Source: Armatimonadota bacterium
GTDB lineage: Bacteria; Sysuimicrobiota; Sysuimicrobiia; Sysuimicrobiales; Kaftiobacteriaceae
NCBI GenBank assembly: GCA_020028535.1
Contig: JAIBHM010000001.1
Location: forward strand, 1-53,681
Length of the DNA: 53,681 bases
Direction: 5' to 3'
Made by a program: the position numbers and the translations under genes. The notes below the pieces were generated by a model. That model did no database searches and had not been told where the DNA came from. It saw nothing but the letters and a program-made list of their open reading frames with translations. This document shows positions 5,343-48,231 of this stretch, piece after piece; within the stretch, counting starts at the first letter, position 1, and each line of letters opens with the position of its first letter.

Positions 5343-6566
5343 ATGGCCATCACGGTGAAGCCGGACCAGTGGCAGCGCATTGAGGGTGGGATCACCGCCG
5401 CGAAGGGCTTTCGCGCCGCCGGCGTGCACTGCGGTGTCAAGTCGGATCGGCATGACCTGGCCTTGATCGTCTCAGACACGCTCGCCTCCGCCGCGGCGAT
5501 GTTCACCACCAACGCCGTCAAGGCCGCGCCGGTCCTGGTCAGCCAGGAAAAGGTCCAGTCGGGCGCGGCGCAGGCGATCATCGTGAACAGCGGCAACGCC
5601 AACGCATGCACAGGCGAGCGGGGTCTGGCCGACGCGTGGGAGATGGGCCAGCTGGCAGCTACGACGCTCGGCATCGCCGAGGAATTCGTGCTGGTCGCAA
5701 GCACTGGGGTCATCGGCATCCCGCTGCCGATGGACGCGATTCGCGCCGGGGTCCGCCACCTGCCGGCCGCCCTGGACCGCGATGGGGCGGCCGCGGCGGA
5801 GGCGATTCTCACGACGGATGCTTTCCCCAAGACGGCGGCCGTGCAGCTGCAGGTCAAGGGGAAGAGAGTGACCATCGGCGGGATCGCCAAGGGCGCGGGC
5901 ATGATCCATCCCAACATGGCCACGACACTCTGCTTCCTGACGACCGATGCCTCGGTGCCGGCGCCGGTCCTCCGGGGGGCGCTGCGCAGCGCCATCGATC
6001 AATCCTTCAACTGCATTTCAGTGGATGGAGACACCAGTACGAACGACACGGTATTTCTACTGGCCAACGGGGCTGCAGGAGCGAGCCCGCTGCTTGAGGA
6101 CGACGACGAGTTTGCTCGCTTCACGTCTGCCCTGACAGCGCTGACGACGGATTTGGCCCGCATGGTTGTTAGAGATGGCGAGGGGGCGAGCAAACTCGTC
6201 AGCATCACGCTGCGCGGCGCAAGAACGCCGGGTGATGCGCGGCGCGCCGCCCAGGCCGTCATGACGTCTCCGCTGGTGAAGACGGCGATCTATGGAGGCG
6301 AACCCAACTGGGGCCGTGTGCTGGCCGCCGTAGGCCGGTCAGGCGCGGCAGTCGCATCCGACGTGGCCGAGATCTGGATCGGTGGCGTTCAGGTCGTCCG
6401 CCACGGCGCAGGCATTCCGGACGAGCTGCCGGCCGCCGCGGAGGCGATGAAGCAGCCGGAGTATGAGATTGTGGTCGACCTGCACCTGGGCGAGGCATCG
6501 TTCACGGGGTGGACGTGCGACTTGAACGAGGGCTACGTGAAGATCAACGCAGGTTACATGACGTGA
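5343..6566 (+). CDS. argJ: bifunctional glutamate N-acetyltransferase / amino-acid acetyltransferase
   Basis: KGFRAAGVHCGVK... and the autoprocessing motif GMIHPNMATTLCF (ATML-type). GAGGAGGG RBS. Confidence 0.95.
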   Translation: MAITVKPDQWQRIEGGITAAKGFRAAGVHCGVKSDRHDLALIVSDTLASAAAMFTTNAVKAAPVLVSQEKVQSGAAQAIIVNSGNANACTGERGLADAWEMGQLAATTLGIAEEFVLVASTGVIGIPLPMDAIRAGVRHLPAALDRDGAAAAEAILTTDAFPKTAAVQLQVKGKRVTIGGIAKGAGMIHPNMATTLCFLTTDASVPAPVLRGALRSAIDQSFNCISVDGDTSTNDTVFLLANGAAGASPLLEDDDEFARFTSALTALTTDLARMVVRDGEGASKLVSITLRGARTPGDARRAAQAVMTSPLVKTAIYGGEPNWGRVLAAVGRSGAAVASDVAEIWIGGVQVVRHGAGIPDELPAAAEAMKQPEYEIVVDLHLGEASFTGWTCDLNEGYVKINAGYMT

Positions 6567-6576
6567 GGGAGTACTG

Positions 6577-7458
6577 ATGGCCCTGCAGACCCACGAGGTC
6601 ATCGACCTGGGCAGCTCGCTGGCGAAAGCGCTCCAGTACGTCAACGCCTGGAAGAGGAAGCCTGTCGTCGTGAAACTCGGCGGCAGCGTGCTGGCGGGTG
6701 AAGACCAGGGAACCCTCATCGAGGACCTGGTGCTGCTCAAGGGAGTGGGTGTCGATCCGGTCCTGGTCCACGGCGGCGGGCCGGAGATCACCCGGATCCT
6801 TGAGCGTTTCGGCAAGGAGAGCCGCTTCGTCAACGGCCTCCGCGTCACGGACGACGAGACGATGGAAGTCGTGGAGATGGTGCTGGCGGGAAGAGCCAAC
6901 AAGGCGATCGTTTCGATGATTGCCCGCGCCGGCGGCACGGCCGTCGGGATCAGCGGCAAGGACGGGAAGGTCTTTCAGGCACATCGCCTCGCGCCGGAGC
7001 TCGGCCAGGTCGGCGAGATCGATATCGTCGATACCTCCCTCCTCACGCTCCTGTCAAGCGGGGGATACATTCCCGTCGTGGCGTCCATCGGGATCGGCGA
7101 AGAGGGTGAGAGCTACAATCTGAACGCCGATACGGCGGCGGGGGCGCTGGCGGCCGGATTGGGCGCGAGCAAGTTCATCCTGATGACCGACGTGCGGGGC
7201 GTGTACCGGGGTGGGAACGACAACAAAGCGCTCGTCTCAGTCCTGCGGATGGGGGAGGCGAAGGAGCTGATCAGGCAGGGTGTGATCTCGCGCGGCATGA
7301 TCCCTAAGGTGGAGGCCTGCCTGGAAGCGATCGACGCCGGGGTACCCACCGCCCATATCATCAGCGGGACGATCCCGCACGCCCTGCTCGTGGAGCTGTT
7401 CACTGAAGAGGGTGTCGGGACGATGATCGTCCGCGATGATGTCCACGCGAACGCGTAA
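6577..7458 (+). CDS. argB: acetylglutamate kinase
   Basis: VVVKLGGS...LVHGGGPEI...YNLNADTAAGALA are amino-acid kinase family motifs. Confidence 0.95.
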   Translation: MALQTHEVIDLGSSLAKALQYVNAWKRKPVVVKLGGSVLAGEDQGTLIEDLVLLKGVGVDPVLVHGGGPEITRILERFGKESRFVNGLRVTDDETMEVVEMVLAGRANKAIVSMIARAGGTAVGISGKDGKVFQAHRLAPELGQVGEIDIVDTSLLTLLSSGGYIPVVASIGIGEEGESYNLNADTAAGALAAGLGASKFILMTDVRGVYRGGNDNKALVSVLRMGEAKELIRQGVISRGMIPKVEACLEAIDAGVPTAHIISGTIPHALLVELFTEEGVGTMIVRDDVHANA

Positions 7459-11878: not shown

Positions 11879-11926
11879 CCTCTCCGCACTCCCGGCAGGC
11901 GTTATTTGTTAGTATGTGTATACTGC

Positions 11927-14035
11927 ATGGACGGCATCCGCCCGAAATGGATGGAGTTCCTGCTGACCCTTGCCCGCTCGTCCTTGTCGCGGCGGCTGGC
12001 GATCGGGGTTGGGACGTTCATCGCCCTCACGCTCTTCACCGGCGTTCAATATCTGCGTCCAAGAAACGAACTTGCGGCAGGGCAGGTGAGCCCGCGCGAC
12101 GTGGAAGCGCCGCGCACGGTCGATTTCATCGATCATGTACGGACTGAGGAACTGCGTCAGCGCGCCGCCCGAGATATTCAACCGGTCTACACGCAGTCCG
12201 CTCAGGTCAACGAGCAGGCCCGTCAGGTGGTCCTCAACACGTTCGCCACGATCGCACGCGCCCGTGCCGTCACGAGTTCAGATCAGGCGGCGCGGGCCGC
12301 CGTCCTCCGGCGTGAATCACCCGTGTCCCTGGATAATCCGGCCGTGCTGGCCGCGCTGACGCTCGATCCGCAGCCGTTGGAGGTCGCCAAGAATACGGCC
12401 CTCTCCGTCGTCGAACGGGCGATGGCCGAAGGGATCCGTTCGGGTGACGTCCCGAGGGCGCAGGCCGGGGTGCGCGTGTACATCCGCTCGCTGCCGATCG
12501 CCGGCCGCGTGATGTCGCTGGTCAGCGCCGTGAGCGAGGGGGGGCTGCAGCCGAATCTGATCGTCGACCAGACCGCCACCCAGCTTCAGCGCCGGCGCGC
12601 GATGGAGGCCGTGAACCCGGTGCGCTCCCGCGTCCTGAGGGGGGAGATTCTCGTCCGCCGCGGTGAGGTGGTCACCGAAGCGCACATGCAGAAGCTCGGG
12701 GCGGTCGGGCTGGTCGCGCAACCATTTTCGTGGGTCCGCTTTGCCGGTATGGCGCTCATCTCGCTGCTGCTGTTAATGGTGTCGTCCTTCTACATGCGTC
12801 AGTACCAACCGGAGATTTGGGCGGCTGACAAGCTCTTGCTGGTCTGGAGCCTCGGGGTCGTCCTGACCACCGCACTGGCGCGGATCGTGGTGACCCGCTT
12901 CAATCCGTACCTGCTGCCGGCCGCGGCCGGGACGATGTTGATCGCGGTGCTGCTGCGTCCCCGGCTGGCCCTGTTCACCGCCGCGGTCCTGAGCCTGCTC
13001 GCCGCGCTGGTCGCCGGCGGTGACGTGCGCCTGGCCCTGGTGACGTTCATCGGCTCGACCGTGGGAGTCTACGCCACCAAACGCATCAGCCACCGGACCG
13101 ACCTCGTCGTCGCCGGGCTTCGCGTGGGCGCCGCCACCGCGCTGGCGGTCACGGCCGTGGGGCTGCTCGATCAGCTCCCGTGGTACCCGCACCTGCTGAG
13201 CGACATGGCCTTCGGCCTCGGCAGCGGCGTTCTGGTGGGCGTGATCGCCATCGGCGTGCTGCCATATCTGGAAAACCTCTTCGGGCTGGTGACGCCGATC
13301 AAGCTGTTGGAGTTAAGCGACCCGGGGCATCCCATGCTGCGCCGCCTCCAGATGGAAGCCCCCGGCACCTACCACCACAGCATCATGGTGGCGAACCTGG
13401 CGGAGGCCGCGGCGGACGCGATCGGCGCGGACGGCCTGCTGGTGCGCGTCGGGACCTACTACCACGACGTTGGGAAGCTCCGGCGCCCGGCCTTCTTCGC
13501 CGAGAACCAGGCGGGCATCGAGAATCCGCACGACAAGATGGCGCCGAGCCTCTCCGCGCTGACCGTGCTCGCCCACGTGCGTGACGGGCTGGAGTACGCG
13601 CGGGAGCACAAACTGCCTGAGTCCGTGGCCGATTTCATTCCCGAGCATCACGGGACAAGCCTGATCACGTACTTCTACCATCAAGCGAAAGAACGCGGCG
13701 ACACGGTCGATGAGGACGGGTTCCGGTACGAGGGGCCACGGCCTCAGAGCAGGGAGACGGCGATCGTGATGCTGGCCGACGCCGTGGAGGGCGCGGTCCG
13801 GGCGCTGAAGCAGCCCACGCCCGATCGCATCGAGCAGGTCGTCCGCCGGATCATTCGCGAGAAACTGGAAGACGGCCAGCTCGATGAGTGTGATCTGACC
13901 TTCCGCGATCTGGACACTATCGCTGCGACCTTCACGCGGCTCCTGGCCAGCATGTTTCATCCCCGCGTCGAATACCCCGATCTCGAGCGCGACTTCCCGC
14001 GACGACGCGTCACCAGGCCCGCCCCCGTCAGGTAA
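11927..14035 (+). CDS. pgpH: 7TM-HD membrane phosphohydrolase (PgpH/YqfF-type, candidate c-di-AMP phosphodiesterase)
   Basis: It has an N-terminal extracellular region, about seven TM helices, then HD-domain motifs (YHHSIMVANLAE...YYHDVGK...PEHHG). It sits directly upstream of ybeY-dgkA, as in Bacillota. The start is uncertain (11906 or 11927). Confidence 0.85.
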   Translation: MDGIRPKWMEFLLTLARSSLSRRLAIGVGTFIALTLFTGVQYLRPRNELAAGQVSPRDVEAPRTVDFIDHVRTEELRQRAARDIQPVYTQSAQVNEQARQVVLNTFATIARARAVTSSDQAARAAVLRRESPVSLDNPAVLAALTLDPQPLEVAKNTALSVVERAMAEGIRSGDVPRAQAGVRVYIRSLPIAGRVMSLVSAVSEGGLQPNLIVDQTATQLQRRRAMEAVNPVRSRVLRGEILVRRGEVVTEAHMQKLGAVGLVAQPFSWVRFAGMALISLLLLMVSSFYMRQYQPEIWAADKLLLVWSLGVVLTTALARIVVTRFNPYLLPAAAGTMLIAVLLRPRLALFTAAVLSLLAALVAGGDVRLALVTFIGSTVGVYATKRISHRTDLVVAGLRVGAATALAVTAVGLLDQLPWYPHLLSDMAFGLGSGVLVGVIAIGVLPYLENLFGLVTPIKLLELSDPGHPMLRRLQMEAPGTYHHSIMVANLAEAAADAIGADGLLVRVGTYYHDVGKLRRPAFFAENQAGIENPHDKMAPSLSALTVLAHVRDGLEYAREHKLPESVADFIPEHHGTSLITYFYHQAKERGDTVDEDGFRYEGPRPQSRETAIVMLADAVEGAVRALKQPTPDRIEQVVRRIIREKLEDGQLDECDLTFRDLDTIAATFTRLLASMFHPRVEYPDLERDFPRRRVTRPAPVR

Positions 14036-15080: not shown

Positions 15081-16103
15081 GTGGGGATCTTGCGCAAGAC
15101 GCTGGTGTATGCGTTCGCGGTCGCGCTTACTGTGGCGACCGTATCGTACACGGTCGTGGCACAGCAGCCGCGGAGCCGGCTTGATGCAGTCCGCGCGCGC
15201 GGACGATTGATCTGCGGCGTGGAGGGCGCGACCGCAGGATTCAGCTTCCCGGATCCCACTTCGGGTCGCACGATCGGGTTTGACGCCGACTTCTGTCACG
15301 CCGTCGCTGCGTTCCTGGACGTCCCGGAGGTCGAGTTCGTCAGACTCACAGGGGCCACCCGGCTCCCCGCCGTGGCTTCCGGGTCCGTGGACGTGGTGTT
15401 CCGAACGACCACGCAGACGATCAGCCGCGACGACCAGGTGGACTTCGGTCCGGTGACGTTTTACGACGGGCAGCGCCTTCTCGTACGCACAGACTCGAGG
15501 ATCCGCGGGCTGAATGATCTCAACGGCGCGCGCGTCTGCTCGCAGACCGGGACCACAAGTGAGCGAAACATTACGGACCAGATGCGGCAGAGGAATTTTC
15601 GCTTCCAACTGATTACCTTTGCCACGCCGAAAGAAGCCTTTGATGGACTGGCAGCCGGACGCTGCGACGTCTGGACGACCGATGCCAGCCAGCTCACCGC
15701 GTTTCGCGCGACGGCGCCGAACCCGGGGGAGTTTCAGGTCGTGGGCAGAGAGTTCAGCGATGAGCCGTTGACACCGATCTACCAGGAGAACGACTCCAAG
15801 TGGGCTGACGTCGTGAACTACACCGTCTGGGGGATGATCCTGGCGGAGGAACTCGGCATCACCCTCGACATCGCCCGCAATCCCGGTCGGTTGAACGAGA
15901 TGGCATCCAGGGATCCTATCGTCAAGAACTACATTGAGATGAAAGGTGGGGCCATGGTTCGGTCGCTCCGCCTTGTCGGTAATTACGGTGAAGTCTACAA
16001 CCGATACTTCGGCCCGCGCTCCAGGACGGCGATCACGCGGAACGGCACGCGCAACGAGCTGTCACGCGACGGCGGCGCCATGACGTCGCGGCCCTTCCGG
16101 TAA
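15081..16103 (+). CDS. amino-acid ABC transporter substrate-binding protein (AapJ/BztA-like, ~340 aa)
   Basis: It has a signal peptide (LVYAFAVALTVATVSYTVVAQQ), then a type-3 SBP fold (GRLICGV...GFDADFC...DVVFRTTT). The start may be the TTG at 15090, given the GGGAGG at 15076-15081. Confidence 0.85.
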   Translation: MGILRKTLVYAFAVALTVATVSYTVVAQQPRSRLDAVRARGRLICGVEGATAGFSFPDPTSGRTIGFDADFCHAVAAFLDVPEVEFVRLTGATRLPAVASGSVDVVFRTTTQTISRDDQVDFGPVTFYDGQRLLVRTDSRIRGLNDLNGARVCSQTGTTSERNITDQMRQRNFRFQLITFATPKEAFDGLAAGRCDVWTTDASQLTAFRATAPNPGEFQVVGREFSDEPLTPIYQENDSKWADVVNYTVWGMILAEELGITLDIARNPGRLNEMASRDPIVKNYIEMKGGAMVRSLRLVGNYGEVYNRYFGPRSRTAITRNGTRNELSRDGGAMTSRPFR

Positions 16104-16199
16104 GGGGGTTTGCGCGCGTTCACAAGTTGAGGTTGGTCACGGCGAGCGGTGAGCCCTGGTGTGGCTCATCGCTCGCTGTCCGCACGCGATGAACTAACC

Positions 16200-17219
16200 A
16201 TGGACGTTCACCGCCGGTCCGCACCCCCGTTCTGGCGAGACGAACGGCGGCTCGCCATCCTGGCGCAAGTCCTCTTCATCCTCCTTGTCCTTGCGGCGCT
16301 GTGGGCGGCGGGTGAGGCTCTTCGGGACAGTTTTCAGCGCAGGAACATCCGGCTCGACTGGTCCTTCTGGCGTCAGAACGCCGGGTTCGAGCTCAGCGCG
16401 CTCTCCTGGACGATCGATCTCGAGACACTCAGCCTCAAGCGCTACGATCCCGGGGACTCGACCGGCGAAGCGATGATCGCCGGCCTCTTCAATACGATCA
16501 AGGTGGCGGTGCTTGGCATCAGCCTGGCGACCTTCCTGGGGATCGTCGCCGGCGTTGCGCGACTGTCGCGGAACTGGCTGGTTAGCCGGCTGGCGCTCGG
16601 CTACGTCGAGGTTTTTCGCAACACTCCGCTGCTCGTGCAGTTGTTCTTCTGGTACTTCGCGGTGATCCTGCAACTCCCGAACGGTTCCCCCGGGCAGCCC
16701 CCGCTGCGTCTCTTCGGGGACGCGATCGTGCTGACCAACTCAGGCCTGGCCTTCGGGGGGACGGTCGTGGACCGCTTTGGTCGCCTGGTGGTAGACGGGG
16801 GTTTCCAGCTCACCCCGGAGTTCGCGGCTCTTGTCATCGGGCTGGCAGCATATACCTCGGCCTTCATCGCCGAAATCATCCGCGGCGGGATTCTCGCCGT
16901 CTCCCGGGGGCAGATGGAGGCTGCCCGCAGCGTCGGCCTGTCGTACGGTAAGAGCCTCCGGTTGATCATCCTGCCGCAGGCGCTCCGCATCGTCATCCCG
17001 CCGCTCGGCAACCAGTTCCTCAACCTGACAAAGAACAGCAGCCTGGCGATCGGCATTGGCTTCGCGGAGTTCCTGACCGCCGCCAGTACTGTCAGTAGCC
17101 AGACGTTCCGTTCGCTGGAGGCGTACACCGTGGTCACGCTGGGTTACCTGATGCTCTCGCTGACAATCTCAGCCCTTCTCAACCTCGTGCGCTCGCGCCT
17201 GGCCCTGCCGGGGCATTGA
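16200..17219 (+). CDS. amino-acid ABC transporter permease (AapQ-like)
   Basis: Multi-TM protein. FRNTPLLVQLFFWYF and the EAA-like loop EIIRGGILAVSRGQMEAARSVGLS. I prefer the ATG at 16200. Confidence 0.85.
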   Translation: MDVHRRSAPPFWRDERRLAILAQVLFILLVLAALWAAGEALRDSFQRRNIRLDWSFWRQNAGFELSALSWTIDLETLSLKRYDPGDSTGEAMIAGLFNTIKVAVLGISLATFLGIVAGVARLSRNWLVSRLALGYVEVFRNTPLLVQLFFWYFAVILQLPNGSPGQPPLRLFGDAIVLTNSGLAFGGTVVDRFGRLVVDGGFQLTPEFAALVIGLAAYTSAFIAEIIRGGILAVSRGQMEAARSVGLSYGKSLRLIILPQALRIVIPPLGNQFLNLTKNSSLAIGIGFAEFLTAASTVSSQTFRSLEAYTVVTLGYLMLSLTISALLNLVRSRLALPGH

Positions 17220-17222
17220 TCT

Positions 17223-18239
17223 ATGGCCACGCGTATCGAGGTGCTTGCCCCGCCCGAGGAACGGCAGACTGCCTGGCAGTGGGCGCAGCACAACCTCTTC
17301 GGCGGGCTCTGGAACTCGCTGCTCACCGTCGTCATCGCCGCGGCGCTCGCCTCTGCTGTCTCGCGCATCGCCGGCTGGGCAGCAAAGGCGCACTGGGACG
17401 TCGTCCTGAACAATCCCAGGTTCTGGCTGGTTGGACTGATGCCGGTGGAGTTTGCGCTGCGGGCGTACTGGGCGGGAGGATTGGTGGTCATCGCCGCCCT
17501 TCTGACCCTCCTCGGGATCCGGGCGAGGGTTCGCCCCCGCGTCCTGGTCGCGCTGTGGGGCGGAATCATCATCGGGGCGATCTGGATCATGTCCCCTGTC
17601 CGGCTCGACCAGATCGGCGGATTGTACCTGACCCTGCTGCTGGCGGTCGTCGCCATCACCGCATCCTTCCCGATGGGGGTGCTCGTGGGGATGGGGCGGG
17701 TCAGTCGCCTCCCTGCCATCCGCGCCTTTTCCATCCTCTATATTGAGGTGATCCGCGGGATCCCATTCATCACCGTCCTGCTCTGGTTCTCCGTCTTCGT
17801 CACCCTGCTGAGCGGTGACGCGCTGGGCCGGGTGCAGCGGGCGATGATCGCCATGACCATCTTCAGCTCCGCTTACGTTGGAGAGATCGTGCGGGCGGGG
17901 ATTCAGTCCGTGCCGCGGGGGCAGGTGGAGGCGGCGCGGGCCGTGGGTCTTTCGCCGGTGCAAACCATGTGGCATATCGTGCTGCCCCAGGCGATCAAGA
18001 ATATGATCCCGGCGCTGGTCGGGCAGTTCATCAGTTTATTCAAGGATACGTCGCTCGCCGTGATCATTGGGTTGAGCGAGCTCGTCGGCACAGGGCGCGC
18101 GCTGCTGGCGATCACGCAATATCTGCACGATGTACGCGAGGTCTATGTGTTTCTACTCGTGGTATACTTTGTGTTCTCGTACGCGATGTCAAGTGCGAGC
18201 CGGCGCTTAGAGCGCCGGCTGGGGTTGGGAGAACGGTGA
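17223..18239 (+). CDS. amino-acid ABC transporter permease (AapM-like)
   Basis: EVIRGIPFITVL... and the EAA loop EIVRAGIQSVPRGQVEAARAVGLS. Confidence 0.85.
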   Translation: MATRIEVLAPPEERQTAWQWAQHNLFGGLWNSLLTVVIAAALASAVSRIAGWAAKAHWDVVLNNPRFWLVGLMPVEFALRAYWAGGLVVIAALLTLLGIRARVRPRVLVALWGGIIIGAIWIMSPVRLDQIGGLYLTLLLAVVAITASFPMGVLVGMGRVSRLPAIRAFSILYIEVIRGIPFITVLLWFSVFVTLLSGDALGRVQRAMIAMTIFSSAYVGEIVRAGIQSVPRGQVEAARAVGLSPVQTMWHIVLPQAIKNMIPALVGQFISLFKDTSLAVIIGLSELVGTGRALLAITQYLHDVREVYVFLLVVYFVFSYAMSSASRRLERRLGLGER

Positions 18240-18251
18240 GGATGGTGGATC

Positions 18252-19046
18252 ATGGCTGAAACGCAGGTGCGGGAGCGCACGCACACACAGGCCCCCGCCC
18301 GGGACGGCGAGCCGATCATCCTGCTGGACGACGTCCACAAGTGGTTCGGCAAGCTGCACGTTCTGCAGGGCATCCACCTTCGCGTCTTCCCCGGCGAAGT
18401 CGTCGTGGTAGCGGGTCCCTCGGGCTCAGGGAAGTCCACCATGATCCGCTGTATCAATCGCCTGGAGAGCCATCAGCGCGGGCGGATCATCGTGGACGGC
18501 ATTGAGCTCACCGATGACATCCGCAATATCGACGCGGTGCGTAGCGAGGTGGGCATGGTGTTCCAGTCGTTCAACCTCTTCCCCCACCTCACCGCCCTGC
18601 AGAACGTCTCCCTGGCTCCGATCAAGGTTCGCAAGTGGCCCAGGGGCAAGGCCGAGCGCGTCGCCATGGAGCTGCTCGACCGCGTCGGCATGCCGGAGAA
18701 AGCCCACATTTATCCCGGTCAGCTGTCCGGCGGCCAGCAGCAGCGTGTGGCCATCGCCCGGGCGCTCGCCATGCAGCCCAAGATCATGCTGTTCGACGAA
18801 CCCACCTCGGCGCTCGATCCGGAGATGATCCAGGAGGTGCTGGACGTCATGCGCGGCCTCGCGACCGACGCAGGCATGACGATGATGGTGGTCACCCACG
18901 AGATGGGGTTCGCGCGTGAGGTGGCCGACCGCATCATCTTCATGGACGGGGGCGTCATCGTCGAGGAAGGCGCTCCCGAACACTTCTTCACGAATCCCAC
19001 CCATCCGCGAACCAAGCTGTTCCTGTCGAAGATCCTGCATCAGTGA
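18252..19046 (+). CDS. amino-acid ABC transporter ATP-binding protein
   Basis: Walker [10 protein letters not shown], signature [15 protein letters not shown], Walker [12 protein letters not shown]. Confidence 0.92.
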
Positions 19047-19127: not shown

Positions 19128-20408
19128 TTGGACGCTTCAGGTAGTTCGCTGAATTACGTTCTTTTGATGCTGTTGCTCCTGCTGTCCGCCTTCTTCTCCG
19201 GTTCTGAGACGGCGCTGCTGGCGGCCAACAAGCTCCGCCTGCGGCATATGGATGAGGAGGGCAACCGGCGGGCCGGCATCGTGAGGCGCCTGCTGGAGGA
19301 GCCCGGCCGGGTGCTCACCGCGCTGCTCGTGGGCAATAACATCGTCAATGTGGCGGCGACCGTGTTTGCCACGGCGATCGCGGTGCAGCTGTGGGGCCCG
19401 CAGCGCGGACCCCTCTATGCCCTCGTCGGCATGACCCTCCTCCTGCTGATCGTGGGGGAGATCACCCCCAAGACCTTCGCCGCCAAGTACGCCGACCGGG
19501 TGGCGGTGTGGGTGGCGCGTCCTATCTCGTGGTTCACCGTCCTGCTGGCGCCGATCATCCGGGTGGTGTCCCTGCTCAGCAACCTGTTGCTGCGCCCGCT
19601 TGGCGGCAGGGTAAACCTTGCTTCTCCGCTCGTCACTGAAGAGGAGATCCGCCTGCTGGTGAAGATGGGGGAAGAGGAGGGGGTCATCCAGGAAGACGAG
19701 CGGGAGATGATCCACTCCATCTTCGAGTTCGGCGACACCGTGGTGCGCGAGGTCATGGTCCCGCGCATCGACATGGTATGTGTGGCGGATACCGATACGG
19801 TGGCGGACGCCCTGCGGGTGGTGCGGGAAGAGGGTCACTCCCGCCTCCCGGTCTACCACGAGTCGATCGACCAGATCGTCGGCACCGTGCACGTGAAAGA
19901 CCTGATCACCTACGTCCAGGACCGGCGCGAGTCCGCGCCGGTCAAGGAGGCGGTGCGTCCGGCCTACTTCATTCCGGAGAGCAAGCCGCTGGACAGCCTC
20001 TTCCGCGAAATGCGTCGCAAGAAGGTGCACATGGCCATCGTCGTGGACGAATACGGCGGCACCGCGGGGCTCGTGACGATCGAGGACCTCCTGGAGGAGA
20101 TCGTGGGACCGATCCTCGACGAATATGATGTCGAAGAGAAGCTCCTGGAAGTGGTGAACGAGAACGTCGCCGTCGTGGACGGGCGCCTCAGCCTGGAAGA
20201 GGTGAACGAGCAGCTGGGTCTGGATCTGCCGGTCGGCCAGGTGGATACCATCGGGGGCTTCGTCTACTCCCTGCTCGGCCACGTGCCGTCCCAGGGTGAA
20301 ACCGTCACCTACGACGGCGTCGAGCTCTTCGTCGAGCGTCTCGAAGGCCACCGCGTCGCGCGGGTGCGGATCACGAAGCGGGTTCCCACCGAGCAGCTCC
20401 GCTCCTAA
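19128..20408 (+). CDS. hemolysin-family protein (DUF21 membrane domain, CBS pair, CorC_HlyC)
   Basis: SAFFSGSETALLA is DUF21; there is a CBS pair; the C-terminus GGFVYSLLGHVPSQGETV...V is CorC_HlyC. TTG start. Confidence 0.88.
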   Translation: MDASGSSLNYVLLMLLLLLSAFFSGSETALLAANKLRLRHMDEEGNRRAGIVRRLLEEPGRVLTALLVGNNIVNVAATVFATAIAVQLWGPQRGPLYALVGMTLLLLIVGEITPKTFAAKYADRVAVWVARPISWFTVLLAPIIRVVSLLSNLLLRPLGGRVNLASPLVTEEEIRLLVKMGEEEGVIQEDEREMIHSIFEFGDTVVREVMVPRIDMVCVADTDTVADALRVVREEGHSRLPVYHESIDQIVGTVHVKDLITYVQDRRESAPVKEAVRPAYFIPESKPLDSLFREMRRKKVHMAIVVDEYGGTAGLVTIEDLLEEIVGPILDEYDVEEKLLEVVNENVAVVDGRLSLEEVNEQLGLDLPVGQVDTIGGFVYSLLGHVPSQGETVTYDGVELFVERLEGHRVARVRITKRVPTEQLRS

Positions 20409-21038
20409 ATGCGCGCGCGGCTGCGCACGTACTTCATCGCAGGACTCATCGTCTTTCTTCCCGTCGCCATCACGTTCAGCATCATCGTCTGGTTGTTCCG
20501 CATCGTGGACAGCTTTCTGGGATGGGCCCTCCCGCCGCTGTTTGGCTGGGCGTTTCCGGGGTTGGGTCTGGCGCTGTCCATCCTGGTCATCCTCGTGATC
20601 GGGGCGCTGGCCACCAACGTCCTGGGCCGCCGCGTGGTCGGGTTCTTCGAGCGCCTGATGCTGCGCATTCCGCTGGCACGGAGCATCTACTCAGCGACGA
20701 AATCTATCAGCGACAGCCTGTTCCTGCACCGGCGGGCGGCGTTCCGGACACCTGTGCTCATCGAATGGCCGCGCAAGGGAGGAATCTACCGGCTCGGCTT
20801 CGTGACAGGGGAGATCTCCGGCGTGCCCGAGGGCAGGGCGGTGAGTGTGTTCATTGTCGCGACCCCCAACCCGACCACCGGGTTCCTCGTCTTCGTGCCG
20901 CAGGCGGAGGCGAAGCCGCTCGACATGAGCGTGGAAGACGCGCTGAAAATCGTCATCTCCGGCGGCATCGTTGCGACCGACCTGCGCGTCGTCCCCGCAC
21001 CCGGTCCCGTCCGCACGGCTGCGGGGGAGGACCGCTGA
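20409..21038 (+). CDS. DUF502 family membrane protein
   Basis: Two N-terminal TM helices, then IPLARSIYSATKSISDS...GFVTGE...TPNPTTGF, which is typical of DUF502. Confidence 0.8.
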   Translation: MRARLRTYFIAGLIVFLPVAITFSIIVWLFRIVDSFLGWALPPLFGWAFPGLGLALSILVILVIGALATNVLGRRVVGFFERLMLRIPLARSIYSATKSISDSLFLHRRAAFRTPVLIEWPRKGGIYRLGFVTGEISGVPEGRAVSVFIVATPNPTTGFLVFVPQAEAKPLDMSVEDALKIVISGGIVATDLRVVPAPGPVRTAAGEDR

Positions 21039-21456: not shown

Positions 21457-22353
21457 ATGGCGCGGAGCGGCTTCGTTGCCCTCGCCGGCCGTTCCAACGT
21501 CGGGAAGTCCGCGCTGCTCAACCGCCTCGTCGGCGCCAAGGTCGCCATCACGGCCGCGGCGCCTCAGACCACCCGGACGCGTGTCCAGGGCGTCCTCACA
21601 CGTCCCGACGCCCAGATCATCTTCATCGACACGCCCGGCATCCACGACCCGCGGCACCGGTTGGGCGAGCGGATGGTGGCGCAGGCGCGGGAAGCGCTCA
21701 AAGACGCCGACGTCATCCTCGCAGTGTTCGACGCGTCCGTCCCTCTCACCGAGGAGGATCGTCTCACCGGAAGCCTGATCCGCCAGGCCGGCAAGCCGGC
21801 GGTGGCCGCCCTCAACAAGATCGACAAGATCGACCGCGTAAATCGCGATGAGGCAGAAGCGCGCAGGCGGGAGGTGCGCGATCTCGCGCCGTTTTCGTCG
21901 GTCGTCCCAGTGTCCGCGACGCGAGGGGGCGGAATCGATGGCCTGATCGAGGCTCTCGTTGCCCTTGTGCCTGAGGGGCCGCAGTACTTTCCTCCCGACA
22001 TGGTGACGGACCAGCCTGAGCAGTTTCTCGTGCGGGAGTTCATCCGCGAGCAGGCGATCGCCCTGACCCGCGAGGAGCTCCCCCACAGCGTGGCGGTGGA
22101 AATCGAGGAGTTCGAGGAACGTTCTGCCGACCTCGTGTACATCCGCGCCACCATCCACGTCGAGCGGGAATCGCACAAGAAGATGCTGATCGGGCGAGGG
22201 GGCCGGATGCTCAAGGAGATTGGCCGGCGGGCGAGAGCGGAGATCGAAGCCCTGCTCGGCCGACGCGTCTATCTCGACCTCTGGGTGAAGACGTCCAAGG
22301 ACTGGCGCGAGCGGGACGAGATGATTCGCGCCTTCTATCCGGAGCACCGCTGA
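21457..22353 (+). CDS. era: GTPase Era
   Basis: G1 GRSNVGKSALLN, G3 DTPG, G4 NKID, and a KH-domain C-terminus (LIGRGGRMLKEIG). Confidence 0.95.
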   Translation: MARSGFVALAGRSNVGKSALLNRLVGAKVAITAAAPQTTRTRVQGVLTRPDAQIIFIDTPGIHDPRHRLGERMVAQAREALKDADVILAVFDASVPLTEEDRLTGSLIRQAGKPAVAALNKIDKIDRVNRDEAEARRREVRDLAPFSSVVPVSATRGGGIDGLIEALVALVPEGPQYFPPDMVTDQPEQFLVREFIREQAIALTREELPHSVAVEIEEFEERSADLVYIRATIHVERESHKKMLIGRGGRMLKEIGRRARAEIEALLGRRVYLDLWVKTSKDWRERDEMIRAFYPEHR

Positions 22354-22414
22354 CAAGGGAAATCCCCACGAGCCGTGGAAAGCCGTGCGGGGCTTACGCC
22401 CCCGACACACGCGC

Positions 22415-23704
22415 ATGATCTACCTGAGCCGTCTCATCAACGCTGCGATCGTCGATGCCGAAGGCGTGCGTCTCGGCGCCCTCGGCGACATTGCCGTTGA
22501 CATTCGCGAGCCGCTGCCGCGCGTCACCGGATTGTGGCTGCGCGGCGATCGCAGCAAACTGGCGATTATCCCCTGGGACTTCGTCGCCGGGGTTCACGAC
22601 TCGGAAATCCGGCTTCGCGTCGCCCGCCATCACCTCCAGCCCCGTCCCCTGCAGCCTGAAGAGTTGCTCCTGGCAGGCGTCCTGGACACGCAGGTGGTGG
22701 ACACCGACGGTGTGAAAGTCGTGCGCGTCAACGACCTGCATCTGATGCCGGCGAACGGGGACGTGCGTCTCATCGCGGTGGACGTGGGCACCATGGGCCT
22801 GCTGCGCCGCCTGAACCTCGACCGGCCCGTGGACTGGCTGGCGCGCATGTTCAGCGGCCCGCTGCCCGACCGGGTCATCCCCTGGAAAATCGTCGCCGCG
22901 TTCGGGGGGCCGATGACTCCGGTCAAGCTGAGCGTCTCGCGGGAACGGCTGCGGGAGATCCACCCGGCAGACCTGGGTCAGTTGATGGAGGATCTGGACC
23001 GGGACGAGCGTGTCGAGGTGATGACCGTCCTGGAACACGAGGACGCGGCGGATGCGCTGGCCGAGGCCGACCCCGATGTCCAGTCGGACGTGATGAAGAG
23101 CCTGCCGAGCGAACTGGCCGCCGACATTCTCGAAGAGATGTCGCCTGACGACGCCACCGATGTCCTCACCGACCTGCCCGCAGCACGCGCCGAGGAGCTC
23201 ATCGGGCTGATGGGCCCCGAAGAAGCGGCCGATGTCAAAGAACTGCTGAAGTATCCGGAGGGGACGGCGGGGAGCGTGATGACGACGGAGTTCATCGCGC
23301 TGCCCGAAGGTCTCACCGCGGACCAGACGCTGGCGCGCCTGCGCGATCTCGCGCCGACCTCCGAGCACATTTACTACTTCTATGTGGTCGACGGGCAGCA
23401 CCGGCTGGCCGGCGTCCTTCCGCTGCGGGCGTTGATCGTCGCCCGGGCCGATCAGCCGATCGCCGGGATCATCACGCGCGACGTCATTTCCATCTTCGCC
23501 TACGATGAGGTGGAGAACGTCGCCGCCGCGCTGATCAAGTACGACCTCCTGGCGCTCCCGGTGGTGGACGAGATCAACCGGCTGGTCGGCGTCATCACCC
23601 TGGACGACATCATCGACGTCGTGGTGCGCAAGGGGCGCCGGCGGATTCCGATGCGCTTCAGGCGCAGGGCCGCCTCGACGCACGCGAGGGCCGTGACGCG
23701 CTGA
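22415..23704 (+). CDS. soluble PRC-barrel(x2) / MgtE_N / CBS-pair protein: an MgtE cytoplasmic module without the MgtE membrane domain
   Basis: N-terminal PRC-barrel-like repeats (AIVDAEGVRLG...; VVDTDGVKVVRVNDL). An acidic MgtE_N helical domain (IHPADLGQLMEDLDRDERV...EEMSPDDATDVL). A CBS pair (GSVMTTEF...VVDGQHRLAGVL...LPVVDEINRLVGVITLDDI). It ends just after the CBS pair with no TM segment. TGATG overlap with the next gene. Confidence 0.85.
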   Translation: MIYLSRLINAAIVDAEGVRLGALGDIAVDIREPLPRVTGLWLRGDRSKLAIIPWDFVAGVHDSEIRLRVARHHLQPRPLQPEELLLAGVLDTQVVDTDGVKVVRVNDLHLMPANGDVRLIAVDVGTMGLLRRLNLDRPVDWLARMFSGPLPDRVIPWKIVAAFGGPMTPVKLSVSRERLREIHPADLGQLMEDLDRDERVEVMTVLEHEDAADALAEADPDVQSDVMKSLPSELAADILEEMSPDDATDVLTDLPAARAEELIGLMGPEEAADVKELLKYPEGTAGSVMTTEFIALPEGLTADQTLARLRDLAPTSEHIYYFYVVDGQHRLAGVLPLRALIVARADQPIAGIITRDVISIFAYDEVENVAAALIKYDLLALPVVDEINRLVGVITLDDIIDVVVRKGRRRIPMRFRRRAASTHARAVTR

Positions 23705-24948
23705 TGGGGGGGTGGCTACGGCAGCGCTGGGCCCGCCTGGCGATTTTCCTCGCGGTGATGGGCCCCGGAATCATCACGGGCAACGTCGACAACGACGCGA
23801 ACGGCATCGCCACCTACTCTGTTGCCGGCGCGCACTTCGGCTACGGCCTGCTGTGGACCCTCGTGCTCTCCACCGTCGCCCTCGCGCTCGTCCAGGAGAT
23901 GGTGGCGCGTATGGGCGCCGTCACCGGCAAAGGACTGGCCGATCTCATCCGCGAGCGATTCCGCGCGCGGCTCACCGTCTTCGTGATGGTGGTGCTGGTG
24001 CTGGCCAACTGGGCCAACACGATCGGCGACTTCGCCGGCGTGGCGGGGGCCATGGAGATTTTCGGGGTCAGCCGCTATTTCGCGCTGCCGCTCGCGGCGC
24101 TCTTCGTGTGGCTGCTCGTCGTGCGCGGGAGCTTACGGCTGGTGGAACGGGTCTTTCTGGGGGCGACCCTGATCTACGTCACGTACGTCGTCTCCGCGAT
24201 TCTGGCCCGGCCCCCGTGGGGGGAGGTGCTGCGGGCCGTGGTCACACCGACCTGGCAGTTCGACCGGCCCTACGTCGCCCTGGTGATCGGGTTGATCGGC
24301 ACCACCATTGCGCCGTGGATGCAGTTCTACCAGCAGGCGGCGGTGGTGGACAAGGGCATTCGGGAGCAGGACTACGGCTACGCCAGACTGGACACGTATC
24401 TCGGCGTCATCTCGCTCAACGTCGTGGCGTTTTTCATTGTCGTGGCCTGCGGCGCCACGCTCTTCGCGCGCGGCGTGACGATCCAGGATGCCGCCGACGC
24501 CGCGGTGGCCCTCAGACCGCTCGCCGGTCCCTATGCCGCCGGGCTGTTTGCGATCGGATTACTCAACGCCGGGTTGTTCTCGGTCGCGATCATCCCGCTG
24601 TCCACCGCCTATGCCGTGTGTGAGGCGTTCGGATGGGAAGCCGGATTGGACCGCAGCCCGCGGGAGGCGCCGGTCTTCGTGGGATTGTTCACGGGACTGA
24701 TCGTGGCCTCGGCGCTGGTGATCCTCATCCCCGGCATTCCGCTCATCCCGGTCATGCTCTTCTCGCAGGTCCTCAACGGGATGCTCCTGCCGTTTGTGCT
24801 GTTCTTCATCATCCTGCTCACCAGCGATCGCGAACTCATGGGCCGATATCGCAACACACCAGTGTTCTCGCTGATTTCTTGGGTGCTGGTGATGGTGCTG
24901 GCAGCGCTCAGCCTGCTCCTCATCGTCGTGACGCTCTTCGGCGCCTGA
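23704..24948 (+). CDS. NRAMP-related transporter with a non-canonical metal-binding site (NRMT-like)
   Basis: About 11 TM helices. The TM1 region GPGIITGNVDNDANGIATYS has D-A-N-G where NRAMPs have D-P-G-N. The TM6 region GTTIAPWMQFYQQ has A-P-W where NRAMPs have M-P-H. Confidence 0.85.
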   Translation: MGGWLRQRWARLAIFLAVMGPGIITGNVDNDANGIATYSVAGAHFGYGLLWTLVLSTVALALVQEMVARMGAVTGKGLADLIRERFRARLTVFVMVVLVLANWANTIGDFAGVAGAMEIFGVSRYFALPLAALFVWLLVVRGSLRLVERVFLGATLIYVTYVVSAILARPPWGEVLRAVVTPTWQFDRPYVALVIGLIGTTIAPWMQFYQQAAVVDKGIREQDYGYARLDTYLGVISLNVVAFFIVVACGATLFARGVTIQDAADAAVALRPLAGPYAAGLFAIGLLNAGLFSVAIIPLSTAYAVCEAFGWEAGLDRSPREAPVFVGLFTGLIVASALVILIPGIPLIPVMLFSQVLNGMLLPFVLFFIILLTSDRELMGRYRNTPVFSLISWVLVMVLAALSLLLIVVTLFGA

Positions 24949-24950
24949 TA

Positions 24951-25697
24951 ATGCCCGTCTACAAAACCGAGGCCATCGTGATCCGGCGGGCCAATCTCGG
25001 CGAGGCCGACCGCATTCTGACGCTGTTCACCAGGGAGTATGGGAAACTCGCCGCCGTGGCAAAGGGCGCGCGCAAACCCCGCAGCCGGTTCGCCGGGCGC
25101 CTGGAACTGTTCACGCAGTTGCGCGCACTGCTGGCCCGGGGCCGCACGCTGGATGTGGTCTCGCAGGTGGACGTGATCGATCCGTTCGCCGCGCTCCGCG
25201 CGGATCTCGCTCGGATGGGTGCGGCCTCGTTCGTCGCCGAGGTCACCGACAAGGCGACACCCGACCGCGAAGCGCAGCCCGCGATCTATTCCGTCCTCCG
25301 CCAGGGGCTCCGGATGATCGCGGCAAGCGACCCCGGGATGGCCGTGATGTGGTACGCGGCGCAGATCCTCAGCCTCTCTGGTTACGGGCCGGTCGTAGAT
25401 CGATGCGTGGTCTGTGGGAAGATGGTCGCCGGCCCGGGGGCGTTCAGCTTCTCCCTGGGGGGGAGTGTGTGCGGGGCCGACCGCGGACGAGACCCCGAGG
25501 CCGTGCCGGCTTCGGCAGTCGCGCTCGCAGCGATCGGGTTCCTGCGCGAAGCCTCTGCGGCTGCGCTGTCGCGCATCTCGTTGCAGCGGCGGCAGCGCGC
25601 CGAAGTGGAAGGTTTGCTGCGCCGCTATCTCGAGTACCGTCTGGAAGCGAAGCTCCGGAGCCCACCGGTGATCGAGCGGCTGAGCCGCCCGACCTGA
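24951..25697 (+). CDS. recO: DNA repair protein RecO
   Basis: The ATG at 24951 gives MPVYKTEAIVIRRANLGEADRILTLFT (OB fold). CVVCG... is the zinc-finger-like region. The track ORF from 24633 is an upstream extension. Confidence 0.9.
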   Translation: MPVYKTEAIVIRRANLGEADRILTLFTREYGKLAAVAKGARKPRSRFAGRLELFTQLRALLARGRTLDVVSQVDVIDPFAALRADLARMGAASFVAEVTDKATPDREAQPAIYSVLRQGLRMIAASDPGMAVMWYAAQILSLSGYGPVVDRCVVCGKMVAGPGAFSFSLGGSVCGADRGRDPEAVPASAVALAAIGFLREASAAALSRISLQRRQRAEVEGLLRRYLEYRLEAKLRSPPVIERLSRPT

Positions 25698-25703
25698 TCC
25701 CCG

Positions 25704-25964
25704 CTAGTCGTCCTTGACGACGGTGGTGCTGCTTCCCCCACCCGAGGCCGCGATGGCGATCACGGCGATCAAGACGACCAGCGCGAGGATGAGGACGAGC
25801 GTTGTGCTCATGCCGCCGCCACGACCGTCAGGTGCGGAGGGCGCGGGTGCTAACGGGGCGGGTGTTCCACCGCCGGGCGGATTGGGCTGGGTTTCCTGCG
25901 CCAGAACCGCGCCGAAAGATACGAAGGTCAGAAGCAGGGTCAAGACAACGGCCAGTGCTCGCAT
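25704..25964 (-). CDS. hypothetical small secreted/membrane-anchored protein
   Basis: Signal peptide MRALAVVLTLLLTFVSFGAVLAQ, a Pro/Gly-rich linker and a C-terminal TM helix. GGAGG sits 8 nt upstream of the ATG at 25964. No family recognised. Confidence 0.5.
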   Translation of the reverse strand: MRALAVVLTLLLTFVSFGAVLAQETQPNPPGGGTPAPLAPAPSAPDGRGGGMSTTLVLILALVVLIAVIAIAASGGGSSTTVVKDD

Positions 25965-26018
25965 CAGCAAAACCTCCGTGAACTAGATTGAAAACAATTT
26001 TCCCGCAGGGCGTCGGGG

Positions 26019-48157: not shown

Positions 48158-48231
48158 TGGGGGATCGTCTAGTGGTAGGACGGCGGGCTCTGGACCCGTT
48201 AGCGGGGGTTCGAATCCTCCTCCCCCAGCCA
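48158..48231 (+). tRNA. tRNA-Gln (anticodon CTG), CCA encoded
   Basis: Hand-folded. Acceptor stem TGGGGGA/TCCCCCA. D arm GTCT-AGTGGTA-GGAC. Anticodon arm GCGGG-CTCTGGA-CCCGT. T arm GGGGG-TTCGAAT-CCTCC. Discriminator G plus CCA. Confidence 0.92.

Follow-up and report, generated by a model that had tools for sequence, protein, structure and literature searches.

A stand-alone PRC-MgtE_N-CBS protein encoded beside an NRMT-clade transporter as a candidate Mg2+-sensing partner

The gene pair and its two products

We analysed a 53,681-nucleotide (nt) stretch of DNA from an Armatimonadota bacterium (GenBank assembly GCA_020028535.1, contig JAIBHM010000001.1, positions 1 to 53,681, forward strand), called the window below. 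The subject is a pair of adjacent open reading frames (ORFs): ORF A encodes a soluble protein that resembles the cytoplasmic part of the Mg2+ channel MgtE, and ORF B encodes a transporter of the NRAMP-related Mg2+ transporter (NRMT) clade. The features of the pair and of its immediate neighbours are collected in Table 1. The ATG at 22415 was preferred as the start of ORF A over an alternative upstream GTG at 22385 because homologues begin M-x-YLS, which matches 22415. The TGA of ORF A (23702-23704) and the ATG of ORF B (23704-23706) have the A at 23704 in common, and a candidate Shine-Dalgarno sequence, GAGGG, lies ahead of the ORF B start at 23686-23690. ORF A and ORF B are a translationally coupled two-gene module, and the pair is part of an operon with the order cdd-era-(A-B)-recO, all genes in one direction. 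When the era/ORF A and ORF B/recO gaps were scanned for promoter and terminator consensus sequences, nothing informative was found.

Table 1. Features of the gene pair and its immediate neighbours in the window
Feature	Position	Strand	Basis or remark
era (GTPase + KH domain)	21457..22353	+	followed after 61 nt by ORF A
ORF A, soluble PRC-PRC-MgtE_N-CBS-CBS protein, 429 amino acids (aa)	22415..23704	+	Pfam, NCBIfam, PDB match, AlphaFold2 (AF2) model
Two PRC-barrel-like repeats (residues 1-80, 81-165), then disordered linker to ~175	22415..22909	+	Pfam, hhalign, AF2
MgtE_N helical domain (residues 182-283)	22958..23263	+	Pfam, PDB match, alignment
CBS pair (residues 286-405)	23270..23629	+	Pfam, PDB match, alignment
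Basic C-terminal tail KGRRRIPMRFRRRAASTHARAVTR, net charge +10, last 24 residues	23630..23701	+	alignment, charge count
TGATG stop/start overlap, 1 nt	23702..23706	+	read from sequence
ORF B, NRMT-clade SLC11/NRAMP-fold transporter, 414 aa	23704..24948	+	Pfam Nramp, EleNRMT match
Transmembrane helix 1 (TM1) metal-site motif D31-A32-N33-G34 (canonical NRAMP D-P-G-N; Asn -> Gly)	23794..23805	+	alignments
TM6 motif T200-T-I-A203-P-W205...Q210 (canonical A-x-x-M-P-H...H)	24301..24333	+	alignments
recO	24951..25697	+	starts 2 nt past ORF B stop

In ORF A, Pfam recognised a PRC domain at residues 1-62 (1.5e-9), the MgtE_N domain (3.6e-28) and two CBS domains (4.3e-15), with no match to the MgtE transmembrane (TM) domain PF01769. 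The second PRC repeat emerged from a profile-profile comparison of residues 2-41 with residues 84-123 (hhalign probability 93.9%, E 1.6e-7), and the PRC region holds two strongly conserved motifs, PRPLQPEE and KVVRVNDL. Against the mgtE model TIGR00400, ORF A scored 194.8, under the cut-off of 232.75, and covered only profile positions 20-258 of 450; no TM-like 19-residue hydrophobic window was found in it (Kyte-Doolittle maximum 1.52). Its AF2 model, built from 63 sequences (pLDDT 80.8), is beta-rich over residues 1-163 and continues through a disordered linker, a helical N domain and the CBS pair into a low-confidence tail, with a low-confidence helix at residues 413-424. The model superposes (TMt 0.78) on 2YVY, the Mg2+-bound cytosolic domain of Thermus thermophilus MgtE (TtMgtE), which also matched ORF A in sequence (E 3.5e-44, ~41% identity). 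A Foldseek search with the full model was dominated by CBS/MgtE matches and was uninformative on the PRC part. The stretch from residue 173 to 285 carries a net charge of -23.

ORF A ends exactly where the TM domain of MgtE would begin, as might be expected of a truncated mgtE pseudogene after loss of its pore. Nevertheless, when the whole window was searched by tblastn with three MgtE TM domains, there was no match at E <=0.04 and none at 23600-25000, that is, no TM remnant in any frame. The intact architecture also recurs in thousands of homologues: ORF A has 4673, of which the best 120 measure 336-465 aa, mostly 408-465 aa (the two at 336-337 aa come from short contigs), and none of these 120 contains the MgtE TM domain. 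In alignments of 63-87 sequences ORF A is conserved over its whole length. The missing pore remnant, the 4673 homologues and the whole-length conservation refute the pseudogene reading, to which we give practically no credence; ORF A represents a separate subfamily that has a basic tail of its own. Two irregular gene calls were noted alongside. At locus L059 (4420-5974), in a Spirochaetota metagenome-assembled genome, the partner is split among three ORFs that overlap and differ in frame (one each for PRC, MgtE_N and CBS), which reflects either a gene in decay or a frameshift in the assembly. In P0371 (331 aa), PRC and an incomplete MgtE_N run into an ABC_sub_bind fragment; a chimera or a truncation in gene calling is the probable cause, though it could represent a further architecture.

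ORF B matched the Pfam Nramp family (PF01566) at 6.5e-102 over profile positions 1-356 of 357. The closest solved structure was EleNRMT from Eggerthella lenta (7QIA; E 5.3e-117, 394.5 bits, 48% identity, no gaps over residues 11-413); structures of MntH, DMT and NRAT reached at most 101 bits (E 1e-28 to 1e-22 for canonical MntH/DMT), and ORF B fell below the cut-offs of the NCBIfam MntH models NF001923 and TIGR01197. ORF B numbering converts to EleNRMT numbering by a constant offset of 24, and D31, G34, T200, A203, W205, Q210, Q355 and D109 correspond to EleNRMT D55, G58, T224, A227, W229, N234, Q379 and E133, respectively. In TM6 of ORF B a Thr ligand is gained, the Met is gone and both proton-pathway His residues are gone, their helix 6b positions being taken by W205 and Q210 (W229 and N234 in EleNRMT); the TM6 stretch IGTTIAPWM is identical in EleNRMT. 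Both proteins have the D/G/T/A site, Trp for the first His, the Gln (Q379/Q355) and an acidic residue at E133/D109; they differ in TM1, which reads D-A-G-G in EleNRMT and D-A-N-G in ORF B, and at the second His position, which is Asn in EleNRMT and Gln in ORF B (7QIA/7QIC/7QJI/7QJJ; Ramanadane et al., 2022, PMC8806188).

In EleNRMT, T224, G58, A227, Q379 and D55 experimentally define NRMT function; the site is widened and takes largely hydrated Mg2+, and the protein moves Mg2+ and Mn2+ but not Ca2+, uncoupled from H+ (PMC8806188). Every sequence criterion places ORF B in the NRMT clade. Its homology to EleNRMT predicts uniport of hydrated Mg2+ as well as Mn2+ without coupling to H+, through a widened site probably made up of D31, G34, T200 and A203; its substrate may include or favour Mn2+. 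The DPGN and A-x-x-M-P-H motifs of canonical NRAMP/MntH transition-metal transporters are absent from ORF B, which has DANG and TTIAPW. The site residues are near-invariant among the 145 NRMTs collected (TM1 Gly in 145/145). A sub-clade from soil metagenomes has the variant site E/G/T/T/Y, in which the TM1 Asp is replaced by Glu, the Ala at the Met position by Thr and the Trp by Tyr, and still has the partner upstream (L129, L130, L134, L136, L138-L140, L143, L146, L148, L150 and L157); 17 more NRMT loci show only the replacement of Ala by Thr.

An earlier note on this DNA had described ORF A as PRC repeats, an acidic MgtE_N domain and a CBS pair with no TM segment, had pointed out the TGATG overlap, and had described ORF B as a ~414-aa NRAMP-fold transporter of NRMT type with DANG and TTIAPW replacing the canonical DPGN and MPH motifs. 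Pfam, the hhalign repeat and the Kyte-Doolittle profile agree with it on ORF A; the overlap is there in the sequence; the PF01566 and EleNRMT matches confirm the type of ORF B, and the EleNRMT alignment confirms that the canonical motifs are not intact. The mgtE remnants that would have told against its reading of the pair did not appear.

The Mg2+ sites of TtMgtE have been assigned by mutants to E258 (Mg2), D259 (Mg3), D91/D247 (Mg4), D226/D250 (Mg5), D95 (Mg6) and E59 (Mg7), and the residues of Mg4-Mg7 mediate domain closure in gating (PMC5882242). The ligands of Mg2 and Mg3 stand where the plug helix begins and point towards the pore domain. We aligned 87 partners to the TtMgtE sequence. 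All Mg4-Mg7 positions are acidic in ORF A: in the N domain E59, D91 and D95 become D213, D245 and D249, and in the CBS pair D226, D247 and D250 become D377, D398 and D401, which gives Mg4 as D245/D398, Mg5 as D377/D401, Mg6 as D249 and Mg7 as D213. With the exception of D226, these ligands are also kept in most of the 87 partners (D95 in 84, D91 in 69 and D247 in 67; E59 and D250 each as Asp or Glu in 66). At the Mg2/Mg3 ligands E258 and D259, by contrast, ORF A has R409 and R410, and most partners have Lys or Arg; the basic tail occupies the place of the acidic start of the MgtE plug helix (E255, E258, D259). ORF A is thus like the T. thermophilus channel (2YVX/2YVY/2ZY9) in its homologous N domain and CBS pair and in the acidic Mg4-Mg7 ligands, and unlike it in that the plug helix and the 5-TM pore are found only in MgtE and the two extra N-terminal PRC barrels only in ORF A. 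Judged from these alignments, the Mg2+-dependent clamp between N domain and CBS pair looks retained and its output end looks rewired.

The ATP pocket of TtMgtE consists of Y170, R187, D188, N203 and F227, and F227A abolishes ATP binding (PMC5529423). Y321 and R338 of ORF A keep the first two residues, and A339, T354 and L378 stand in place of D188, N203 and F227. ATP sensing by ORF A is doubtful because the ATP-stacking Phe (F227) is Leu. The earlier note had called ORF A an Mg2+/ATP sensor; the ATP half of this is weak.

Conservation of the pair and of the partner module

To gauge linkage across genomes, we ran a scan with an NRMT-specific peptide pattern, which gave at least 598 loci, and examined the best 80 with purpose-built hidden Markov models (HMMs). 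A reverse scan covered 80 partner loci on metagenome contigs. Both samples are the 80 best matches to the proteins of the window and not random samples of the families. The 80 NRMT loci span many bacterial phyla and archaea. An intact partner lies directly upstream on the same strand at 61 of them; the partner is cut by a contig end at three, frameshifted at one (L059), upstream but farther off at three, downstream on the same strand at one and convergent at three. Six have no partner within 6 kb, and two are without upstream sequence (three in a tally that puts L065 here). A partner is found at most 6 kb away in 71 of the 77 assessable loci. In the reverse scan, seven loci had too little downstream sequence to judge and an NRMT gene follows directly at 70, which corresponds to 70/71 assessable stand-alone partners; of the three loci without an NRMT, two hold full-length PRC-MgtE channels and one a lone partner (L125). 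The earlier note had treated the adjacency as meaningful, and these counts bear it out: the adjacency of A and B is strongly conserved and enriched in both directions, and the partner is nearly obligatory across phyla. A comparison of the partner-less with the partner-associated NRMTs showed one conservative D/E column as the only difference and no docking-site signal.

The lineage of EleNRMT itself has the pair. Ahead of a transporter 92% identical to EleNRMT, a 450-aa PRC/MgtE_N/CBS gene ends 3 nt before the transporter gene (L161, 3645-4997 and 5001-6416); this pair comes from uncultured metagenome contigs, with relatives labelled Gordonibacter, Paraeggerthella and Raoultibacter. Furthermore, an M-box riboswitch stands upstream of the pair or of a lone NRMT gene at eight related loci from Geobacterales, Bacillota, Armatimonadota and Terriglobia, and these reproduce the link to Mg2+ made in the excerpts of Shin et al. 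(2014; PLoS Genet, PMC4072509) on which we draw throughout. At L046 (Peptococcaceae bacterium CEB3) the M-box at 5569-5735 is directly upstream of an NRMT gene at ~6007-7257 that has no partner within 6 kb.

The PRC di-domain (ORF A residues 1-172) was also searched against 1.84 billion representative proteins. All 1266 matches have the domain at the N-terminus, and their lengths form one cluster of stand-alone partners at ~405-457 aa and another at 593-656 aa, to which at least 22 of the best 150 belong. Six proteins of 593-656 aa were tested with Pfam. L123, P0363 and P0374 exceed the cut-off of the MgtE TM domain PF01769, and P0363 passes TIGR00400; P0401, P0375 and P0377 (~620-650 aa) gave no significant Pfam match to the MgtE TM domain in their C-terminal ~200 aa, and their C-terminal pore is divergent or different. 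L123 (3190-5046), L124 (3432-5288), P0363, P0374 and ~20 more representatives of 593-656 aa look like full-length MgtE with two extra N-terminal PRC barrels. These PRC-bearing MgtE channels look like the closest cis-fused relatives of the stand-alone partner.

A further protein, P0416 (1314 aa), joins the PRC-MgtE_N-CBS module to a complete P-type ATPase of the MgtA type (1119.8 bits on TIGR01524, cut-off 610.75); its module shares 38% identity with ORF A across 410 aa (E 1e-80). P0416 was found on two contigs (L164 1423-5884 and L165 462-4406), and an M-box lies upstream of its gene (L164 1423-1666, 125 bits). Downstream comes a 621-aa gene that also carries the module and whose C-terminal part matches PF01769 weakly (18.2 bits, cut-off 27.6). 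No description of a PRC-MgtE_N-CBS-MgtA fusion was found in the literature searched. The PRC-bearing MgtE channels and the MgtA fusion (P0363, P0374, L123, P0416) have the same N-terminal PRC di-domain, MgtE_N and CBS module, 35-42% identical to ORF A, and differ from the pair in that their module is covalently joined to a pore or pump, whereas ORF A is a separate polypeptide beside an unrelated carrier fold. The module accompanies three mechanistically unrelated Mg2+ importers, as expected of a regulatory Mg2+ sensor, and this argues against a role unrelated to transport.

Such an unrelated role would be that of a partner with targets other than the transporter, such as the ribosome-assembly factors encoded nearby, which it might regulate in response to Mg2+; it would then be merely co-transcribed with the transporter. 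The position between era and recO, the recurrence of era or recO near the pair in other phyla and the one stand-alone partner without an NRMT gene nearby (L125) speak for it. Since the adjacency is kept in very different genomic contexts across phyla and archaea, and the module is found elsewhere only attached to Mg2+ transporters, we regard this alternative as highly improbable. Another possibility is that the partner is a cytosolic metal acceptor, chaperone or scaffold that takes Mg2+ or Mn2+ from the transporter or localises it, and not a gate. PRC barrels in other proteins are protein- or RNA-binding modules, which counts in favour of a chaperone or scaffold, as does the very acidic N domain (net -23). 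Free Mg2+ is present at mM levels, however, and needs no chaperone; the conserved residues are the ones through which the domains of MgtE close in gating, and in the cis-fused proteins the module occupies the position of a regulatory domain. The chaperone alternative, which was raised by Shin et al., therefore seems very unlikely to us.

A possible feedback gate on the transporter

The earlier note knew of no described coupling of the two families. The pairing has in fact been reported: Shin et al. (PMC4072509) found that most NrmT genes adjoin a gene for MgtE's N-terminal cytoplasmic domain (the "MgtE-like fragment"), and speculated that the fragment has a cytoplasmic feedback-regulatory or a chaperone activity. 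The pair in the window is a further instance, from an uncultured high-GC lineage, of the operon of nrmT and MgtE-like fragment published in 2014. Like the operons of Clostridium acetobutylicum (Ca_c0685) and Acidobacterium capsulatum (Acp2976/Acp2977) in those excerpts, it has a gene for an MgtE cytoplasmic domain directly upstream of an NrmT-clade transporter gene; unlike them, it has no M-box and lies inside an era-recO housekeeping operon, and its partner is a single gene whereas that of C. acetobutylicum is split. The excerpts make no mention of two PRC barrels or a basic tail, and the PRC barrels and basic tail of an NRMT partner are described in no paper of the literature searched. The 2022 structural paper on EleNRMT (PMC8806188) does not mention the partner, and EleNRMT was characterised without it. 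Searches on NRMT with CBS, PRC barrel with MgtE, and MgtE_N returned nothing relevant and no later work from a literature that leaves most subscription journals outside.

From the family identities and the gene linkage, we infer that ORF A binds Mg2+, that it interacts physically with ORF B and that the regulation is inhibitory. On these sequence grounds ORF A is probably a Mg2+-sensing regulatory subunit that shuts off ORF B when cytosolic Mg2+ is high. ORF A would form an MgtE-like dimer and would bind cytosolic Mg2+ at the acidic Mg4-Mg7 sites between the N domain and the CBS pair, and Mg2+ binding would close it, as in MgtE. Closed ORF A would then dock on the cytoplasmic face of ORF B, with the basic tail and/or the PRC barrels as a possible docking surface, and would stop uptake in the Mg2+-replete cell. 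The outcome would be post-translational feedback on a carrier running downhill with the membrane potential, in an organism that has no M-box here. The RCK rings of KtrA and TrkA on KtrB and TrkH offer a functional analogy, being soluble ligand-sensing gating subunits that are encoded adjacently and act on the cytoplasmic side; their folds are unrelated to those of the A-B pair, and the interaction established there by experiment is inferred for A and B.

Several observations weigh against this proposal. Six of the 77 assessable NRMT loci are partner-less, and no fusion of partner and NRMT was found in the 160 loci or in three lists of 120 matches. The Mg5 residue D226 is variable (Asp in 27 and Asn in 35 of the 87 partners), and the loss of the ATP site extends beyond ORF A, the F227 position being Leu in 62/87. 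No match to the M-box (RF00380) was found anywhere in the window; regulation, if any, would therefore be post-transcriptional, which fits a protein sensor. EleNRMT transports in proteoliposomes alone (PMC8806188), and according to Shin et al. (PMC4072509) Ca_c0685 and Ca_c3329 needed no partner to complement a Mg2+-transport mutant, and co-expression of the A. capsulatum partner left rescue unchanged. The last of these tests is weak because an inhibitory gate is not expected to improve rescue. Finally, the riboswitch-less A. capsulatum NrmT is described in the same excerpts as mainly a Mn2+ importer, with full rescue of a Mn2+-transport mutant and partial rescue of Mg2+ transport (PMC4072509).

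This last result leads to the question of the metal. The pair could primarily serve the uptake of Mn2+, a transition metal, with a partner that senses Mn2+ or some other signal and not Mg2+. The A. capsulatum system, which resembles the window in having a partner and no riboswitch, speaks for it, and EleNRMT too carries Mn2+ besides Mg2+. The lack of an M-box in the window points the same way; upstream M-boxes are frequent, and Shin et al. took them as a marker of Mg2+ specificity, though not an obligatory one (PMC4072509). Against Mn2+ stand the site residues of ORF B, identical to those of the Mg2+-transporting EleNRMT, and the MgtE Mg2+ ligands kept by the partner. The fusions of the module to MgtE and to the M-box-controlled MgtA, both dedicated Mg2+ importers, and the M-boxes ahead of pairs in several phyla count against it as well. 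A Mn2+ system is unlikely on this balance, and feedback by Mg2+ stays the reading that we prefer.

A wider form of the Mg2+-feedback proposal is possible, and we put it forward tentatively. PRC-PRC-MgtE_N-CBS may be a portable Mg2+-feedback module that acts in cis on MgtE and MgtA and in trans on NRMT, with ORF A physically gating a transporter of the SLC11 fold through docking of its PRC barrels and basic tail.

Genomic setting and significance

The earlier note had also taken the pair for an insertion between era and recO. The GC content of the pair is that of its flanks and flat over the region, and the era-pair-recO order recurs in clade relatives with a partner 48-99% identical; the arrangement is thus conserved clade-wide, and a recent insertion or an island acquired by horizontal gene transfer was rejected on the flat GC and on the retention of the order down to 48% identity. 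In the Omnitrophota loci L015 and L069 the pair has era on its own strand, ~0.8-1.4 kb upstream, and in Syntrophales and relatives it has recO on the other strand, ~1.5-3.5 kb upstream (L002, L006, L008, L014, L020, L023, L036, L040, L041 and L051). The closeness of the pair to era or recO thus recurs beyond the clade of the window.

Three genes upstream of the pair, in the same co-directional cluster, the window encodes a CNNM/CorC-type protein (19128-20408, + strand; CNNM TM domain, CBS pair and CorC_HlyC) of a family linked to Mg2+ export, and a gene for a DUF502 membrane protein follows it without a gap (20409-21038, + strand). A candidate Mg2+ exporter and the NRMT importer are therefore in one common gene cluster. 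Farther upstream, ahead of the CNNM-DUF502-cdd-era block, come a gene for a 7TM-HD receptor/hydrolase (11906-14035) and then an ABC transporter operon for amino acids (15081-19046; solute-binding protein, two permeases and ATPase). Between recO and glyQ an 88-aa Gly/Pro/Ala-rich ORF with hydrophobic ends (25704-25970, - strand) breaks the otherwise co-directional row, and the sole sigma-70-like promoter match in a 9-kb region (25943-25916, - strand) lies just within the 5' end of this ORF and downstream of the TTG listed as its start. Farther along the window are glyQ/glyS, ppdK, secA, lnt, a gene for a DUF5693 protein and a tRNA (48158-48228).

To the published operons this analysis adds that the partner keeps the Mg4-Mg7 gating ligands with its pore-facing end swapped for a basic tail, that the lineage of EleNRMT, the one NRMT for which a structure and a functioning transport assay exist, has it too, and that MgtE and MgtA occur in fusion with this module; it also adds the doubt about ATP sensing and the clade-wide era-pair-recO order. 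NRMTs are H+-uncoupled uniporters for an ion present at mM levels, and the partner matters because such a carrier without feedback control would over-accumulate Mg2+. With a nearly obligatory partner, kept ligands, a neighbour in the EleNRMT lineage and the fusions to MgtE and MgtA in hand, a reconstitution test of EleNRMT with its own partner is therefore straightforward. If the module is indeed a portable one, the NRMTs, EleNRMT included, would so far have been studied without their physiological regulatory subunit.

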